A DNA stretch of 64,000 nt from an uncultured cyanobacterium (GCA_963744145.1 CAVUSO010000001.1:416001-480000), one strand, 5' to 3'. Shown: positions 3,934-11,518, counted from the stretch's first letter. The notes: a model not told the origin generated them from the letters alone. Program-made: numbers and translations.

Positions 3934-4515
3934 ATGGTTACAGCAATAAAAGAAAAAACCAGATCGAGAAAAGCATTTACAGTAGAAGAATTTTATCGCA
4001 TGGGTGAAGTGGGGATACTCAAAGCAGACGATCGAGTAGAATTAATTGAAGGGGACATAATTGAAATGGCAGCAATTGGGACTCGTCATGCAGGTTGTGT
4101 GAATTGGCTAACTAAGTTTTTTTCTAAAAATCTAGATGAACGTGCTTTAGTGACAGTTCAAAATCCAATCCTATTAAGCGAATACTCGCAGCCTCAACCC
4201 GATCTCACTATAGCCAGGATAGATCCTAATTGTTATAGAACCAAGCATCCCCAACCCCAAGATATATTCCTAATTATTGAAGTTTCGGAGACTACTATCA
4301 AAGACGATCGCGAAAAAGCTTTAATTTATGGTTTAGCTGGTATTTCTGAATATTGGATCGTTAATTTAGATACTCAATTAATCGAAGTTTATCGTCATCC
4401 TAATGTTGATGGTTATCGCGATCGCCTATTATTGATGAGATTAGGTGAATCTATTTCTCCTTTGGCCTTTCCTGACCTGATTATCTCTGTTGCTGATATT
4501 TTGCCCCCATGCTGA
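3934..4515 (+). CDS. Uma2 family endonuclease, copy 3
   Basis: Uma2 motifs; start MVTAIKE chosen by analogy with copies 1 and 2. Confidence 0.92.
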
Positions 4516-6356
4516 AAAATCCAGACTATCAAGTAAAATCCTATCCAAAATTAGCCAAAAACGCTCCTCCACTTCAGCGTCTAATCAATTATGGACATAA
4601 ATATCGCCGTCAAATGTGGCTAGCGACTATTTGTTCAACTTTAAATAAATTCTTTGATTTAGCACCACCAGTTTTAATTGGAATTGCTGTCGATGTGATT
4701 GTGCATAGTCAAGATTCGATCATCGCGAATTGGGGTGTAAAAGATCCCTTCGGGCAATTTGTCATTTTGGGAATTGCCACAGTCATCATTTGGGTCTTAG
4801 AGTCAGCTTTTGAATATGCTTATGCTGTACTGTGGCGCAATTTAGCCCAGACCATTCAGCATGAGCTACGTCTCGATGCTTATAGTCATTTACAAAACTT
4901 AGAACTTGCTTATTTTGAAGAACGTAGCACCGGTGGGTTAATGTCTATTTTAAGTGATGATATTAACCAACTCGAACGATTTTTAGATACTGGTGCTAAT
5001 GAGGTAATTCAAGTTACAGCCACTGTACTTCTCATCGGTGGTGCTTTCTTTATTTTAGCACCAAGTGTAGCAGGGATGGCTATGTCACCCATGCCATTTA
5101 TTATCTGGGGATCGGTAATTTTTCAAAGGTTACTTGCTCCTCGTTATGCCGATGTACGAGAAAAAGTAGGATTATTAAATGGACAACTGGCAAATAATTT
5201 AACCGGTATAACCACAATTAAAAGTTTTACCGCTGAAGAATATGAAATTAAGCGGATTAAAAGAGAAAGTGAAGCTTATCGTCAAAGTAATCGTCGCGCG
5301 ATCGCCCTATCCTCAGCCTTTGTCCCATTAATTCGGATGTTAATTTTAGTCGGGTTCATCGTTTTATTATCCTACGGAGGCATGGAAGCGATCGCGGGTA
5401 AACTATCAGTTGGTACTTATAGCGTGTTAGTATTTCTAATTCAACGCTTATTATGGCCTTTAACTAGATTAGGAGAAACTTTTGACCAATATCAACGGGC
5501 CATGGCATCAACTAATAGGGTCATGAATTTATTAGATACACCGATTGATATTCATTCAGGGAATATTCCTTTACCACTGAGTTCAGTTCAGGGTGAAGTG
5601 ATCCTCAAAAATGTGACATTTGCTTATCAAAATCGCCATCCAGTCATTAAAAACCTATCTTTACATATTCCCGCTGGGAAAACCATTGCGATCGTTGGTT
5701 CTACTGGTTCGGGTAAAAGTACCTTAGTAAAATTATTATTGCGTCTCTATGAAATTAATGAGGGAAAAATTACCTTAGATGGGATTGATTTGCAACAAAT
5801 TCGACTGCAAGATTTACGTCAAGCAATCGGGTTAGTGAGTCAAGATGTATTCTTATTTCATGGGACAGTAGCCGAAAATATTGCTTATGGGACTTTTAAT
5901 GCGACAGAAACTGATATCATCAGAGCAGCAAAAATTGCCGAAGCTGACGATTTTATTAGGCAATTGCCCCAGCAGTATGAGACAATCGTAGGAGAAAGGG
6001 GACAAAAACTATCAGGAGGACAACGACAACGAATTGCGATCGCCAGGGTAATCTTAAAAAATCCGCCGATTTTAATCCTCGACGAAGCAACTTCAGCCGT
6101 AGATAATGAGACAGAAGCTGCGATTCAAAAATCCCTAGAACGCATCACAGTCAATCGGACAACGATCGCGATCGCCCATCGTCTTTCCACCGTTAGAAAT
6201 GCGGCTCAGATTTATGTGATGGAACAAGGTAAATTAGTAGAACAAGGGCGACATGAAGAGCTGTTAGAACAACAGGGTATTTATGCTAGCTTTTGGCGAG
6301 TACAATCTGGCTTAAGATTAGGACAATTAGGAAACACAGACAATGATGATGTTTAA
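4509..6356 (+). CDS. ABC exporter, fused permease/ATP-binding subunit
   Basis: N-terminal TM domain; [26 protein letters not shown]. Confidence 0.95.
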
Positions 6357-6774
6357 TCAACCCCAACCACAGCATGGTGAAAATAAGTGGCGCTCTCAAT
6401 TAGATCAATTTGTCAAAGAAAACCAAAAAGAATTAGCGGCGCTAGCTTGGGGTTTATTTCTAGAAAAGGGAGAAAATAATGATACATTAGGAATAGATTT
6501 GCAACCGACTCCTAGATTTGTTTCTTGTCCCCGGACAGCGATCGAAACTCTCAATACGAATGTAAAACAACATATTCAGGAAATCTTAGGAGTTTTAGAT
6601 GCTTACAATCCGGAGCAGGAAGTTGTCATGATTGGGATTGGTAAAGGACAAATTAAATTAATCCAATTTCAACCAGAGCCACCTCCACCTAAATGTTTCG
6701 CAGAAATTGGTAATAATGTTGATGTTTTATTAGAACAACTTGAACAAAGATTAATCGACATAATGCAGGAATAA
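6343..6774 (+). CDS. ccmS: Beta-carboxysome assembly chaperone CcmS
   Basis: Recognised motifs [46 protein letters not shown]. Confidence 0.8.
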
Positions 6775-6857
6775 ATCAAGTATTTCCGCTCCTGAAAGCA
6801 GCGGAATTATCCTACAACCATGACTACAGAGCGATCGCTAAATCATTTTGCTTGCTT

Positions 6858-6895
6858 GTAGTAAGCGCTTTAGCTCGCTAAAGCGCTTACTACGA
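6858..6895. repeat. REP-like palindrome, possible bidirectional terminator between convergent genes
   Basis: GTAGTAAGCGCTTTAGC-TC-GCTAAAGCGCTTACTAC perfect inverted repeat. Confidence 0.8.
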
Positions 6896-6964
6896 ACCTG
6901 ATTTTTCATTCCTAATTATATCAAAGAATTAGGAGCTATAAACAGTTTACCATGAAGCAGCAAA

Positions 6965-7333
6965 TTAAGATTGATCAAACTCGAGCAAAGCCGAGAGAAG
7001 TTCTTGTTCTTCCGTCATCGCTTTCCGAATACGTGCAATCATCGAAGAAGCGGTATTTTTATTAACTTCAATTTCTTTCGCAAGTTGACGCACACTAATA
7101 TTTTGAGTTGAAGTCATCACCAGATTAATTGCTCGTACCCATTTGGGAATTTCTACATGAGTTTTGTGAAATAGCGTTCCCACAGTAACGCTATAGGAAG
7201 TAAAACATCCATTACAATGATAACGAGATTCATTTTTTATCGGTGTAGCATTAGTTGAATCACAGTAAGGACATTGTGGTTTGTTACCCCAGCGAATTTG
7301 TTCCAAATATGAACTGTTTTTTTGATTTTGCAT
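6965..7333 (-). CDS. IS1595-type transposase N-terminal Zn-ribbon plus HTH protein with no DDE domain
   Basis: CPYC...YHCNGC, SVTVGTLFHKTH, ISVRQLAKEIEVNKNTA..M..RIR; clean stop before the catalytic domain. Confidence 0.8.
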   Translation of the reverse strand: MQNQKNSSYLEQIRWGNKPQCPYCDSTNATPIKNESRYHCNGCFTSYSVTVGTLFHKTHVEIPKWVRAINLVMTSTQNISVRQLAKEIEVNKNTASSMIARIRKAMTEEQELLSALLEFDQS

Positions 7334-8034
7334 TGAAAAAACTCGACTCTGTTTACTAAATCTCTAACCAGATGTCAAAGAGCCAACAAAATCCCTGATC
7401 AGGGAATCAAAAGCTAAAATGTCAGGTTTTTAGCTCCATCCCTATCTATTGAAAAAAACCCCCAGGAAATTTTTTTTTCAATAATTAGAGATTAATTAGA
7501 GATTTGCGTAGCAGATATATGGTTTGGCTGTGATCAGCTGCAAGTCCCCAAATCGAAATCAAGACAGGTATATCCTTTTTACTAGTCGGTGACCCAATAA
7601 ACTAATTCAGATCTACGAACCAGGACTTACACAACACCGCTATAAATTGCGTTTTTTGTTGGGACAATTTCTAGATTGACCCTACAGATAGTGTTTATAC
7701 CGAAGTTCTAGAAAGGAATTAAAGGCTTAAGTTCGGGATTTTCATTTATGGGTCGTTGATCACGAAATATATAACATACATAACACATATTATGTTGTTT
7801 GTATGTTATAAAGGTAAAATATCAACTTGAGGGATGTCAATATAGAGCAGGAGGTTGATTTGATAAAGAAATATTAAGGATGCTGGCCAATTTTTAGTCC
7901 TAGGGACATTTTGTGCTATGGATACGCTGGGTGATAGTAGTACCCAGAAAAACATCAGGGTGGATCAAGAAAACCGACATTGACCTTAGCCCCAGCTATT
8001 TTTAAACCTTACCCAGCTGAGAAAGAGGGATAAA

Positions 8035-9162
8035 GTGATATCAGAAGAAAAAAAGCAAAGGTTATCCGAGCTACTTAAGTACATTCGTGGTAACGATGGA
8101 GTGAAAAAATTTGCGGCTCGTTTAGAGATTAAACTTCCCACTTATAGTGCTTGGGAAACAGCGAGAGCTTTTCCTAGTGATGAAATTTGGGAGATAATTT
8201 TACCCAAATTGTGCGAATTATCTAGCTTTACTCCAGAGATCATCGATCGCTATCTACGCGGAGATTACGAACTAACTGATTTAATTGAAGGATCAGCTCA
8301 AACTGGTTTACTACCTAGAGCTAGACCACTGATGACTATTGCCAAGTTTAGAGCTTGGTTACAAACCCTTTCTTTAACTCAATTAATCCAGATTTTAAAA
8401 GATGCAGTGGATCGAGCTGGATTTTTAGTATCGCAACAGGAGGATAGTGAAAAAATCCTCAATTTACCAACAGTAGATGAATCGAAAAGATCAACTGATC
8501 ATCCGAAAAAAAATCTATTTGGCAAAAATAGTCAAATAAATTTAATATCTACTCGCAGTAAAGAACCAGCCAAGTTGCAAGTAGACCTACTTGATCAAGA
8601 AGCGGTAGTTAGCATTATTTTCCAGTTGAGCAATAACTTATCTCTGGAAAAGATAGCGCAGGTAGATAACCGACTCCGTAACCTAATGTTTTCAAAGTTA
8701 CAGGATCTTGGTTTACTGGAAATGAGCAAATATCAACATCATCCTTTTTACATTTTAATGGAAACCTATAGGATGAATAACAATCTCAGTTACGAACAAT
8801 TTGCCGAACGTCTGATGAGAGAAGGTCTAGAAGCTGGTTTAGATCCTCAACGAATAGCAAAGATTGTGCGAGGTGATTATTTGCCCAATGATCTAGAACT
8901 AATTTGGATTGGCGTTTTTATTCGGAAATCGGATGGAAGTCTTTACAATCACGATGAATTAGTTGCTTTGCGAGATATGACATTTTCGGCTGATTCAGAA
9001 AAATTACCACTAGAGACATCTGTCGAAAATCATGCTACTCATATTTTATCAGACCATGAGGATACAGACAATGACCAGTTTCGGAATTTTGACCACAATA
9101 GCGTAGATGATGAAACTATTCTCAATGAACACAACCGTAATTTTAAACGAAATGGAAAATAG
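8035..9162 (+). CDS. XRE-type HTH protein, probably with a second HTH near the C-terminus
   Basis: KKFAARLEIKLPTYSAWETARAFP; second candidate LSYEQFAERL...DPQRIAKIVRGDYLP; acidic tail. Confidence 0.7.
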   Translation: MISEEKKQRLSELLKYIRGNDGVKKFAARLEIKLPTYSAWETARAFPSDEIWEIILPKLCELSSFTPEIIDRYLRGDYELTDLIEGSAQTGLLPRARPLMTIAKFRAWLQTLSLTQLIQILKDAVDRAGFLVSQQEDSEKILNLPTVDESKRSTDHPKKNLFGKNSQINLISTRSKEPAKLQVDLLDQEAVVSIIFQLSNNLSLEKIAQVDNRLRNLMFSKLQDLGLLEMSKYQHHPFYILMETYRMNNNLSYEQFAERLMREGLEAGLDPQRIAKIVRGDYLPNDLELIWIGVFIRKSDGSLYNHDELVALRDMTFSADSEKLPLETSVENHATHILSDHEDTDNDQFRNFDHNSVDDETILNEHNRNFKRNGK

Positions 9163-9179
9163 TCAAGTAGAGGAATAAA

Positions 9180-9965
9180 ATGTGGAATTATCAGGGTGAT
9201 AATGGTGAAGAATTGCAATTGGAAAAAGAGTTTCAGAGGAGTTCAAATGCTTTAACGACTGCTGTATTTTATCAATTTATTCCGGCTGAAACTAAAAAGA
9301 TTTTAGCTGATGTGAAAATTCAATTAATTACTGATGCGAAAATTCTGCGTTTTGATTGTCCATCGCGAAGAATAGCAGCTCGTTTGTTTAAAATGTCTAA
9401 TCTGATTTCTTTTGCGGTTTATGGTTTAAAGGAAAATTTGCAACTTAACTTTATTCCCAAATTGGAAATTCTCTGTACAGGACAGCAGTTTATCCCTAGA
9501 TTAAACCCGGAGAAATTAGTAATGGATAGTCTGACAGCAGAAAATCAGGAAAAAGTACCTGGAACGAATCTGGTGATCGCTGAGTTAGATTTGGATTTGA
9601 ATGAACTGTATCAAAATCCCAATCCAATTTATATTACCCAAATGTCAGACCAAAAAGTTTTATTTGCTAATCGAGCTGCATTGATATCGAATAATCGAGC
9701 TGCGGGAGAAATGGTTGGGAAAGAAATTGTGGCTCTTTGGGATGATGATATTCTGCAAGAATTGATGAATCGGTTAGAACGCGATCGCGAACTTTGGCAA
9801 TATAATTATCCCGGTTATCGCTGGGCAAAAGGAGAAAATTCTCGGATTTGGCAACGCGATCGCTATATGTTTTCAGCTAATTACAAATTGGTTGATTTTT
9901 TAGGTTCAATGTGCCGCTATTGTATTATTACATCAGCGGAAAAAATGCCACTTCAACCTGTCTAA
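9180..9965 (+). CDS. Hypothetical protein with C-terminal PAS-like domain
   Basis: NPIYIT..DQKVLFANRAA...EMVGK PAS-type signature; 17 bp downstream of the XRE gene. Confidence 0.6.
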   Translation: MWNYQGDNGEELQLEKEFQRSSNALTTAVFYQFIPAETKKILADVKIQLITDAKILRFDCPSRRIAARLFKMSNLISFAVYGLKENLQLNFIPKLEILCTGQQFIPRLNPEKLVMDSLTAENQEKVPGTNLVIAELDLDLNELYQNPNPIYITQMSDQKVLFANRAALISNNRAAGEMVGKEIVALWDDDILQELMNRLERDRELWQYNYPGYRWAKGENSRIWQRDRYMFSANYKLVDFLGSMCRYCIITSAEKMPLQPV

Positions 9966-11518
9966 CAATCATCACAAGATGGCTCTAGAAGCAATATTTT
10001 GTGGAGTGCAGGTAATAAATATTGTGTCAGGGTCAAAGCATCTACACCTAATTCGGTTCGTTCCTGTGCTGCTAATCTACCTGCTTGAGCGTGCCACCAC
10101 GCGGCAATTGGGACCATGATTTCTCTAGCAGTTTGGGTAATCAATCCTGCTAATAGTCCAGTCAGTGCATCCCCACTACCACCACGCGCTAAAGCTGGGG
10201 TACTGGTGGGAATAATCCAGACTGAACCAGTGGGATTAGCGATCGCAGTTCTAGCTCCTTTTAACAAAATGATCGCTCCACTTTGTTGAGCAGCACTTTT
10301 GACTGCATCGATGCGATCTTTGGTCAAAATATCTAATTCGGGAAATAAACGTTGGAATTCACCAGCATGGGGAGTCAAAATGGTAGTCCCTTGGCGATCG
10401 CGCAGGGCAGAAATTAGGTGAAAGTTAGCTAAAATATTTAAAGCATCGGCATCTAAAACTAAAGTCCGATCGCTGGCTAAAATAATTTTTACCACTGGTG
10501 CTGCGGCTAAAGTGAGTCCCGGACCACAACCGATCGCGTGATAAGCATTAAGGTCAAGATTTGCTGGTAACTGGGCGATCGCTCCAGTTTCAGTTTCGGT
10601 ACAGCCAATAATCAGTGCTTCTGGTACTTGTGTCACTAATAAAGATTTAAGTGATTCGGGTACAGCAATGGATAACATTCCGACTCCACTAGCTCTTGCT
10701 CCGAGAGCAGTAATAATTGCAGCTCCCAGATAGCGACGGGAACCACAAATCAGCAATAAATGCCCCATTTTATATTTGTGGGTAACAGGGGGACGAGTTA
10801 GAGGAAGATGGGCGATCGCGGTAGCTGTCGTTACACGCTGAATCATCGGTGGATGACCGACTACAGCCCAAATATCTGCAAGGGGTAAATCAAAATCGAT
10901 CAGTTCAGCAGTTCCTATATAAGCTAATGCTTGGTCTTGTAATAATCCCAGTTTCCATAAACCTAAACAAAATGTTCTTGTAGCACAAATAGCTGTACCT
11001 AATACCTCTCCTGTATCAGCGTGCAAACCAGAAGGTAAATCAATACTAAAAATGGGTTTACCAGATTGATTGACTTGATTGATCACAGCCGCAATTGGGT
11101 CAGCGATCGGTCTTTCTAGTCCAAAGCCAAACAATCCATCAATAATTAGATCAGATTTTTCTAAACAATGTTCAATACATTCTGTAAACACAATACCTAA
11201 ACTTTTCGCATAAGCTGCATGAGTTGAGGTTAACTCTTTTAACTTGGGGAAAGGACAATAGATCGAGGCGATCGCACCTCGAAAATATAGCTCACGAGCA
11301 ATCACCAACGCATCGCCCCCATTGTGACCTGGCCCAACTAAAATCCCTACTCGTAACCCAGGAACTGGATAAAGGGTCTGAATTCGACGCACCATTAACC
11401 CTGCAACCTTTTCCATTAAAGCCGCAACGGGCATTCCTGCTGCAAATACTCGCGCTTCAATTGCTTGCATTTGCTTAGTAGTTACTACAATTTGCTGAAT
11501 TTGGGTTTGTCTGTCCAT
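9962..11518 (-). CDS. nnr: Bifunctional NAD(P)H-hydrate epimerase/dehydratase (YjeF family)
   Basis: GPGHNGGD, IDGLFGFG, DADALN, LTPHAGEF, ARGGSGD. Confidence 0.95.
   Translation of the reverse strand: MDRQTQIQQIVVTTKQMQAIEARVFAAGMPVAALMEKVAGLMVRRIQTLYPVPGLRVGILVGPGHNGGDALVIARELYFRGAIASIYCPFPKLKELTSTHAAYAKSLGIVFTECIEHCLEKSDLIIDGLFGFGLERPIADPIAAVINQVNQSGKPIFSIDLPSGLHADTGEVLGTAICATRTFCLGLWKLGLLQDQALAYIGTAELIDFDLPLADIWAVVGHPPMIQRVTTATAIAHLPLTRPPVTHKYKMGHLLLICGSRRYLGAAIITALGARASGVGMLSIAVPESLKSLLVTQVPEALIIGCTETETGAIAQLPANLDLNAYHAIGCGPGLTLAAAPVVKIILASDRTLVLDADALNILANFHLISALRDRQGTTILTPHAGEFQRLFPELDILTKDRIDAVKSAAQQSGAIILLKGARTAIANPTGSVWIIPTSTPALARGGSGDALTGLLAGLITQTAREIMVPIAAWWHAQAGRLAAQERTELGVDALTLTQYLLPALHKILLLEPSCDDC

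Follow-up and report, generated by a model that had tools for sequence, protein, structure and literature searches.

Genes of the locus and descent of the Zn protein

We analysed a stretch of 64,000 nucleotides (nt) from an uncultured cyanobacterium (GCA_963744145.1, CAVUSO010000001.1:416001-480000), here referred to as the window, with a focus on three genes at positions 6965 to 9965. These encode a 122-amino-acid (aa) protein with a zinc ribbon and a helix-turn-helix (HTH), named Zn, a 375-aa protein with two XRE-type HTH domains, named XRE2, and a 261-aa protein with a PAS fold in its C-terminal half, named the PAS partner, and they very probably belong to a conserved regulatory cassette that is built around a domesticated transposase domain. 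The genome that holds the window (G000) comprises 7.7 Mb in 4 contigs and is 96.3% complete. A preliminary description of this DNA had proposed the same three open reading frames (ORFs), and each was found where it had been placed, including the closely linked third gene, which starts 17 nt past the stop codon of XRE2. The features of the locus, in window positions, are as follows.

6965..7333, minus strand: Zn gene (122 aa), a stand-alone IS1595-type zinc ribbon (CPYC...CNxC) plus HTH that ends where the DDE domain of a transposase begins
7334..7774, minus strand: non-conserved leader from the operator to the Zn start codon, with an inverted repeat at 7438-7492 and a weak hairpin at 7405-7392
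7775..7805: 31-bp palindrome CATACA-N19-TGTATG, a putative operator, unique in the genome and present at all 10 loci with the trio
7811..7840, minus strand: putative sigma-70-type promoter reading toward Zn, with a -35 TTGACA at 7840-7835, an 18-nt spacer and a -10 TACCTT at 7816-7811
7857..7879: conserved block rich in A and T (TTTTGTAAAGAA-like), located 16-21 nt past the -35
8035..9162, plus strand: XRE2 gene (375 aa); the protein has XRE-type HTH domains at 1-83 and 235-315, joined by a linker that varies and followed by an acidic/His-rich tail that varies as well
9180..9965, plus strand: PAS partner gene (261 aa), with an N-terminal domain (about 8-110) and a PAS fold in the C-terminal half (about 140-255)

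The Zn protein matches the Pfam family Zn_ribbon_IS1595 (PF12760) with an E value of 6.3e-11 and 42.5 bits, above the cutoff of 25.4, and of the NCBIfam model for IS1595 transposases (NF033547) it covers only positions 1 to 67 of 215, at 42.8 bits and below the cutoff of 75. It is 54% identical over all 114 alignable residues to P0170, a 300-aa IS1595 transposase that carries a DDE_Tnp_IS1595 domain (E 1e-44), which bears out the earlier suggestion of a transposase-derived DNA-binding domain. The alignment with P0170 places the end of the short proteins at the "ELDE" motif ("E-x-D") of the transposase, which is the opening of its DDE domain. In an alignment of Zn, one full transposase and 18 relatives of short length, the zinc cysteines C21, C24, C40 and C43 were invariant; the HTH residues N93, A95 and R101 were also invariant, and K92 and T94 nearly so, among aligned proteins from loci with the trio and from loci that have the Zn gene without the other two (here referred to as Zn-only). 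A PDB sequence search with the Zn family profile for a solved relative returned nothing better than E 0.5. The DDE domain PF12762 had no match in all 7.7 Mb of G000, the Zn chain itself ends at residue 122, no inverted repeat pair flanking the gene was found in 6700-8100, and the gene is single-copy in G000. An ORF with neither a DDE remnant nor insertion sequence ends, as first described, is therefore what lies here, and because it has no DDE domain, no terminal inverted repeats and one copy rather than several, the Zn gene does not belong to an insertion sequence, the zinc ribbon being the only such feature present. Judged from its sequence, Zn is the zinc-ribbon and HTH part of an IS1595 transposase; it is unable to transpose anything, and the public transposase annotation is misleading.

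To place the gene among its relatives, we used an even sample of 301 genomes from the same order as G000. Orthologs of Zn (E≤5e-31) are present in 22 of them, G000 included, and always as a single copy; a 23rd match, with 37% identity, is to a true transposase of 326 aa in G041. An IS1595 DDE domain occurs in 11 of the 301 genomes and in none of the 22 with a Zn ortholog. The idea that the Zn gene excludes IS1595 was dropped, since the power of a comparison of 0/22 with 11/279 is too low and the genomes are related to one another. A word-indexed protein search returned 442 Zn clusters; among the 120 listed clusters, from which sizes and organisms were taken, the proteins are 121-141 aa long and every named organism is cyanobacterial (Nostoc, Calothrix, Coleofasciculus, Kamptonema, Oxynema and Leptolyngbya, among others). 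The orthologs mostly carry the source label "transposase" ("IS1595 family transposase"). Pairwise dN/dS values (NG86; seven pairs with an unsaturated dS of 0.31-0.68) were 0.04-0.10 for Zn, compared with 0.21-0.40 for XRE2 and 0.12-0.24 for the PAS partner, so that Zn is the most tightly constrained of the three and is under strong purifying selection, an outcome of the selection check that the preliminary description had asked for. That description had also named a recent truncation of a full IS1595 copy elsewhere in the genome as the finding that would speak against it; because the gene is single-copy, the genome has no DDE domain, the orthologs have a uniform size range and the dN/dS values are this low, Zn is not such a truncation. 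In a midpoint-rooted FastTree phylogeny of 160 N-terminal domains (the query plus 16 orthologs from cyanobacteria and, of the best 150 representatives, the 143 left after 7 rows with fewer than 90 aligned residues had been dropped), the half of the tree that contains the query has 76 leaves, of which 74 are at most 165 aa long, one is 215 aa long and one is a 689-aa multi-repeat protein, and all nine proteins found to carry DDE fall in the opposite half. With branch supports of 0.32-0.95 along the path, a single old origin of the short Zn clade is likely rather than proven.

XRE2 matches HTH_3 at residues 244-287 (E 7.6e-6, above the cutoff) and HTH_31 at residues 24-55 (E 0.002, below the cutoff), and among 23 XRE2 orthologs, 18 match the former and 19 the latter. 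The AlphaFold model, with a mean pLDDT of 59.0, has confident helical domains at 1-83 and 235-315, in agreement with the XRE HTHs at both ends that had been read from the sequence. The best PDB matches of these domains in Foldseek were C.BclI (2b5a), ClgR, DdrO, C.Esp1396I and ImmR (target TM 0.62-0.72, root mean square deviation [rmsd] 1.9-3.7 Å over about 75 residues, Foldseek E 0.05-0.6), and the ESM Atlas returned generic HTH_3 and immunity-repressor clusters at 0.90. The gene has a GTG start, and the N terminus is conserved as V/M-(I/V)-S-x-E-K. BLASTP detected no similarity between the two halves of the protein. XRE2 is thus a member of the XRE family with an unusual double-HTH build. 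Among 13 loci with distant XRE2 paralogs, 3 have a PAS-partner-like gene directly downstream (22-28% identity), which, as far as gene order and similarity go, supports an older two-gene XRE-PAS unit. At L021, L023 and L025, the distant paralogs correspond to single halves of XRE2 and have their own PAS-partner-like gene downstream (22-28% identity), and because of these paralogs, XRE2 may be a fusion of two such single-half regulators.

The PAS partner has only a subthreshold match to Pfam PAS (PF00989; E 0.13), as has its ortholog in G189 to PAS_9 (E 0.0038), and its assignment comes from the fold of the model. The mean pLDDT is 65.5; residues 8-110 reach about 78-89, and residues 150-255, at about 50-72, form the order beta-beta-alpha-alpha-alpha-beta-beta-beta. 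Foldseek returned 363 PDB matches at E≤1e-3 (best 1.3e-6), those listed being PAS-type domains, and VIA gave a Z score of 11.7 and an rmsd of 2.5 Å over 103 aligned residues, with 73 chains at Z≥8; a PAS-like domain at the end of this protein, as described, is thereby confirmed. Heme and flavin PAS domains are among the top structural matches, at 5-20% identity, and the PAS domains of PpsR and NifL are among the matches as well. The wide search with VIA was dominated by the PAS half, with no fold match for residues 8-110, and for this N-terminal domain the ESM Atlas gave only unnamed cyanobacterial clusters (0.86-0.87). Four cysteines, Cys60, Cys99, Cys245 and Cys248, are invariant in 21 PAS-partner sequences. 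Prediction of a complex between XRE2 (residues 1-320) and the PAS partner gave scores of 0.19 and 0.28 against a mark of 0.32, and the tool returned no verdict, so that these scores speak neither for nor against binding.

Conservation of the trio and its spacer

XRE2 and the PAS partner are far less widespread than Zn, with 25 and 22 protein clusters, respectively, as opposed to 442, from sources named as Kamptonema, Microcoleus, Laspinema, Phormidium and Oxynema. Orthologs of XRE2 (E<1e-100) were found in 9 of the 301 genomes, counting G000. In seven of the eight relatives, whose flanks were fetched, the Zn gene lies divergently from XRE2 and the PAS partner gene in the same order and orientation as in the window, and the same arrangement was seen at both further loci found by a scan of genome contigs, so that it is kept at 10 of the 11 XRE2-bearing loci examined. 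The trio is co-conserved, as the earlier reading required; its absence of co-conservation had been named as a ground for refutation. The exception is the locus L077 in G170, which has neither the Zn nor the PAS partner gene and where an IS1 InsA-like ORF (5403-5771) lies directly upstream of the XRE2 ortholog and a gene for a group II intron reverse transcriptase/maturase/HNH protein (7362-8732) occupies the expected place of the PAS partner gene. Three GTDB families share the arrangement, with protein identities of 54-75%, and each of the three genes gives largely the same closest pairs. The outer neighbours in the window (an ABC transporter gene, the CcmS gene, a YjeF_N/Carb_kinase gene and an MnmA-like ORF) adjoin the trio nowhere else, and because the genes that flank it elsewhere are different, the cassette is kept as a unit.

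The spacer is about 700 bp long in the window, and in an alignment of eight spacers (480-835 bp) conservation is nearly confined to one block of about 100 bp. This block begins with the palindrome CATACA-N19-TGTATG, which is present at 10 of 10 trio loci, two of which have a single arm mismatch. The pattern occurs once per genome, at the trio locus, in G000 and in each of the five other trio genomes that were searched whole, and a reversed control pattern had no occurrence. It was absent from the fetched stretches around the 14 Zn-only loci; in five Zn-only genomes, two single matches with non-palindromic centres lie away from the Zn gene and are uninformative. To the right of the palindrome, at a distance of 29-33 nt, TGTCAA (TTGACA on the minus strand) is found at 10 of 10 loci, and at all of these a TAnnnT hexamer (TACTAT, TAGTAT, TACGTT, TAATTT, TACTTT, TACCTT or TAACCT) follows 17-18 nt beyond TTGACA. 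We read this pair as a leftward sigma-70-type promoter on the strength of its conservation in 10 aligned loci and not of a scan, and its predicted start, at about 7804, would fall inside the right arm of the palindrome. The A/T-rich block at 7857-7879 is possibly an UP element or a site for a second factor or activator. No conserved small ORF was found in the spacers by tblastx or blastn; tblastx matches at the palindrome occur in all frames, and therefore the conservation is at the nucleotide level.

Inverted repeats lie in the window spacer at 7438-7492 and 7770-7810, and the 473-nt leftward leader including the operator (7806 to 7334, minus strand) folds with a z score of -2.95, none of 100 shuffles being as stable. 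The description of the spacer as structured therefore stands for the window, with the reservation that only about 100 bp of it is conserved in relatives. Rfam, searched over 6000-10500 at E≤1, gave a single match, to a plant-virus pseudoknot at E 0.56, which is a chance match. On the minus strand at 7392-7405, about 60 nt upstream of the Zn start, lies a weak terminator-like hairpin (TCCCTGATCAGGGA followed by a T-run). This hairpin is not conserved in relatives, and it could act as an attenuator.

Several Zn-only loci have features of their own. At five of them (L058 and L060-L063), a different long palindrome covers the ribosome-binding site and start codon of Zn: it is a perfect 40-nt palindrome at L058 and has the form TCATCTTT...AAAGATGA at L060-L063, and those of L058 and L063 have the core CTCAGAGTTCTGAG in common. 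These palindromes could be autoregulatory operators or translational hairpins. At 7 of the 14 Zn-only loci (L058, L063, L066 and L068-L071), the next gene downstream of Zn, in the same orientation, encodes a protein of 259-329 aa that has a long helical tail and, at its N terminus, one or two hydrophobic segments. A Pfam scan of two of the seven (L058 and L071) gave no match, and these proteins are weakly related to one another, with 23-31% identity in some pairs. From these sequence features, such a protein may serve the Zn regulator as an alternative partner that is membrane-bound.

In relatives, the trio lies beside genes for predicted cell wall enzymes. At 9 of the 10 trio loci, i.e., all but the one in the window, the Zn gene is followed by two same-strand Peptidase_C39_2 genes, one of which also matches PG_binding_1 and Glyco_hydro_19, and at 5 of the 10 a gene for a TIR-like/WD40 protein (about 930-960 aa) comes next. 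The gap between Zn and the first peptidase gene is about 320-1050 bp. The nearest C39-like genes of G000 lie at a distance of megabases and show 40-47% identity. Because these genes adjoin the trio in relatives, the ancestral cluster probably had five or six genes, of which G000 keeps only the three regulators. The stretch in question runs from 1198 to 6653 in L029, with equivalents in L030, L031, L033-L036, L073 and L079, and both of the paralogous C39-like proteins have a conserved N-terminal motif, roughly "SLVNVAKYYKGxPHQ". In L036 (G162), the larger C39-like gene is split into frames of 112 aa and 397 aa that lie 12 nt apart in the same frame; tblastn aligns through the break, which suggests either a stop codon within the frame or a fault in the assembly of that genome.

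In the window itself, the trio lies between housekeeping genes, as the preliminary description had it. On one side are an ABC transporter gene and ccmS (NF049993, E 6e-66), with only 190 bp between the Zn gene and ccmS, and on the other are YjeF_N/Carb_kinase, a bifunctional gene of the NAD(P)H-hydrate repair type, and an ORF of 354 aa, which we take to be MnmA-like from a reading of its sequence rather than a profile scan. The ABC transporter gene overlaps ccmS, the gene for a beta-carboxysome assembly chaperone, by 14 nt (4509-6774), and their adjacency is kept at 7 of 13 loci of related genomes. A simple insertion of the trio between ccmS and the YjeF_N/Carb_kinase gene was considered and set aside, since an empty site could not be shown: a YjeF_N/Carb_kinase match within 1.5 kb of ccmS was found at none of the 13 loci of relatives. 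One further feature is found in the interval that separates ccmS from the 3' end of Zn.

6858..6893: hairpin with a perfect 17-bp stem, terminator-like on the plus strand

This palindromic element has four copies in G000, the others being at positions 1441435, 3944581 and 5837772 of C1, and it appears to be a short, dispersed repeat of the REP-like kind with an additional function as a terminator.

A candidate circuit and its alternatives

In light of these data, it is conceivable that the cassette, which belongs to some filamentous (Oscillatoriales-type) cyanobacteria, works as follows. The leftward sigma-70-type promoter would read into the Zn gene, with its start site in the 31-bp palindrome. 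XRE2, with its two HTH domains per chain, is most likely the protein that binds the palindrome, and a dimer could fill the outer CATACAAA and the inner ACAT-type subsites. The PAS partner, presumably cotranscribed with XRE2 and carrying four invariant cysteines, would most likely sense a redox or small-molecule signal and modulate XRE2 by contact. The output would be the amount of Zn protein, the domesticated domain serving as a cellular DNA-binding regulator with a regulon of its own, and in most relatives the promoter may also reach the two C39-like/peptidoglycan-binding hydrolase genes. We infer XRE2 as the binder because the palindrome tracks XRE2 and the PAS partner and not Zn, is unique in each genome and lies at the start site of a transcript directed at Zn. 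Taken as a specific circuit, in which XRE2 under the control of its PAS partner works the operator and thereby sets Zn transcription, this is the reading that we favour over any other, and we hold it tentatively, with slightly more doubt than confidence.

Several observations weigh against it. The structure models are only moderate (mean pLDDT 65.5 for the PAS partner and 59.0 for XRE2), and the alignment shows no covariation by which to decide whether XRE2 or Zn binds the palindrome. Besides G000, 21 genomes have a Zn gene, and 14 of these have neither an XRE2 nor a PAS partner gene: XRE2 (E≤1e-5) was found nowhere in these 14 genomes, and neither XRE2 nor the PAS partner in the flanks fetched from them. 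Because of these genomes, the Zn protein has no need of the XRE2-PAS module, and any dependence is one-sided. The consensus scan omits the leftward promoter, whose -10 in the window (TACCTT) matches 3 of 6 positions, and in the window it gave 3 promoter-like sites where 4.8 were expected from shuffles. A search of the spacer block for a conserved promoter of XRE2 and the PAS partner found no consistent -35/-10 pair. Among public sequencing runs, none of RNA was listed as holding this sequence, and two of DNA were, one with 0.64 of the words and one with 0.06. A non-conserved leader of 260-650 nt separates the operator from the Zn start codon and, because of the weak terminator-like hairpin in it (7405-7392), the leftward transcript may not reach the Zn gene. 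Finally, the two C39-like genes that accompany 9 of the 10 cassettes are not beside the trio in the window. The earlier interpretation is supported in part: the three genes are co-conserved around one shared and unique operator/promoter block, and this synteny is what leads us to propose that their products may form one switch. Most of the Zn family does without XRE2 and the PAS partner.

The same evidence can be read in other ways. Zn itself might bind the palindrome, as two abutted half-sites derived from ancestral insertion sequence ends, and so autoregulate, control XRE2 and the PAS partner, or both, as the master of the cassette and not its output. The N-terminal domains of IS1595 transposases recognise the inverted ends of their element, which fits such a role, as does the position of the palindrome at the start of a transcript that leads to the Zn gene; the palindromes at the Zn start codon at some Zn-only loci (L058 and L060-L063) likewise suggest autoregulation. 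We nevertheless consider this unlikely, as the palindrome tracks XRE2 and the PAS partner (10 of 10 loci, against none of the 14 fetched Zn-only loci) and N93, A95 and R101 of the HTH are invariant across proteins from both kinds of locus. An origin of the palindrome from insertion sequence ends was also looked at in the one full IS1595 copy examined (L072), the inverted ends of which are unlike the half-site. About equally improbable, and in part compatible with the circuit favoured above, is a module for lysis or wall remodelling (e.g., filament breakage or altruistic lysis), in which a CI/Cro-like HTH pair would time the two C39-like/peptidoglycan-binding/GH19-like hydrolases and the regulators in the window would have become separated from their targets. 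The presence of the two same-strand peptidase genes at 9 of 10 trio loci, followed at 5 of them by the TIR-like/WD40 gene, and the direction of the promoter, which points at the peptidase genes, would be explained by such a module, but G000 keeps three intact regulator genes with no peptidase genes beside them, the distance from Zn to the first peptidase gene in relatives is considerable, there is a single operator and not several as in the CI/Cro switch, and none of the three proteins matched a phage or defence family in PHROGs or PADLOC beyond generic HTHs.

A role of the palindrome as RNA, either as a 5' stem-loop for stability or processing or as part of a noncoding RNA that ends before Zn, appears less probable still. 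In its minimum-energy fold, the leader has the palindrome as its 5' hairpin, and none of 100 shuffles folds as stably; by our reading, several arm mismatches in relatives are G-T and could pair in RNA, and the terminator-like hairpin lies upstream of the Zn start codon. However, in each arm the outer 8 bp show near invariance and not covariation, and inner positions are truly mismatched in the window and in G226, and for these reasons a protein site is favoured; in addition, no Rfam family was matched, and the rest of the leader is not conserved. That the linkage has no functional meaning, with Zn an independent housekeeping-type regulator that came to lie beside an ancestral XRE-PAS pair by chance, is the least credible of the alternatives and very improbable: the much wider spread of the Zn family and its occurrence in unrelated contexts in 14 genomes would fit, but the arrangement and the operator/promoter block have been kept, with 54-75% protein identity, in three GTDB families although the genes further out are different, and G000 has kept these three genes together while the peptidase genes were lost or never joined.

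Relation to known systems and significance

The cassette resembles several known systems in part. IS1595 transposases (PF12760 plus PF12762; NF033547) share with Zn the N-terminal CxxC...CxxC zinc ribbon and the HTH; unlike an IS1595 element, Zn has no DDE domain, flanking inverted repeats or extra copies, G000 has no IS1595 element, and the gene sits at a fixed syntenic place under strong purifying selection. InsA of IS1 and OrfA of IS3/IS911 are cases in which the short DNA-binding part of a transposase acts as a regulator or repressor; such products come from genes within an active element, whose transposition they regulate. They are similar to Zn in their DNA-binding-only build, whereas Zn belongs to a conserved chromosomal locus in a genome with no such element. 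The XRE controllers and repressors C.BclI, C.Esp1396I, ClgR, DdrO and ImmR have a five-helix XRE fold in common with the modelled form of both XRE2 domains. The operators of C proteins are palindromic sites that overlap a promoter, and the palindrome here overlaps the predicted promoter start in a comparable way. Unlike these controllers, XRE2 has two unrelated HTHs in one chain, a long variable linker and an acidic/His-rich tail, and there are no restriction-modification, phage or protease partner genes at the trio.

In NifL-NifA and AppA-PpsR, a PAS-type protein controls a DNA-binding protein by contact. The cassette is similar to these in that a gene for a stand-alone PAS protein lies next to, and is co-inherited with, that of a DNA-binding regulator; the likeness here comes from the genes and the model alone, and the sequence relationship goes no further than the generic PAS fold. 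With the CI/Cro pair of phages, the cassette shares two divergent genes for HTH regulators and a putative operator in the spacer between them, but it has one palindrome and not several operators, no phage genes lie nearby, its neighbours are chromosomal and not those of a prophage, and it is kept at 54-75% identity across genera. Consistent with this, PHROGs gave no specific match, only generic repressor families at E 5e-4 to 6e-3. In the PADLOC library of 2023, XRE2 and the PAS partner had no match and Zn matched only CasR, at E 0.007 and over the HTH. Membership in a toxin-antitoxin system was also considered; no toxin family was matched in Pfam, NCBIfam or PADLOC, XRE2 being a 375-aa protein and its partner a 261-aa PAS protein. 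The initial impression that the locus corresponds to no recognised system is therefore upheld for Pfam, NCBIfam, PADLOC, PHROGs and a full-text search of the literature.

Transcription factors that arose by domestication of the DNA-binding domain of a transposase are well known from eukaryotes but have rarely been documented in bacteria. A full-text literature search found no description of a stand-alone IS1595 zinc-ribbon/HTH regulator family or of this cassette. The one paper found to mention PF12760 (PMC13639185) lists it among markers of transposases. The cassette is real, conserved and so far undescribed, and the signal, binding partners and targets that we assign to it are predicted ones. 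The Zn family comprises at least 442 clusters and has the marks of a domesticated factor, namely, no catalytic domain, a single copy per genome and a dN/dS below 0.1, and its labelling as "IS1595 family transposase" leads to mobile elements being overcounted and a regulator being overlooked. The cassette itself would be a compact circuit, with one unique 31-bp putative operator, one predicted promoter, two candidate binders and a PAS sensor. In its boldest form, which we think improbable as a whole, an entire family annotated as "IS1595 transposases" in cyanobacteria would be old, domesticated transcription factors. In Oscillatoriales-type filaments, an XRE-PAS switch that senses redox state or a ligand would have one of these factors as its output and would set the timing of peptidoglycan hydrolases in filament breakage or sacrificial lysis; G000 would have retained the switch with a rewired output. 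The link to cell wall hydrolase genes in most relatives offers a lead to the control of wall remodelling in filamentous cyanobacteria.

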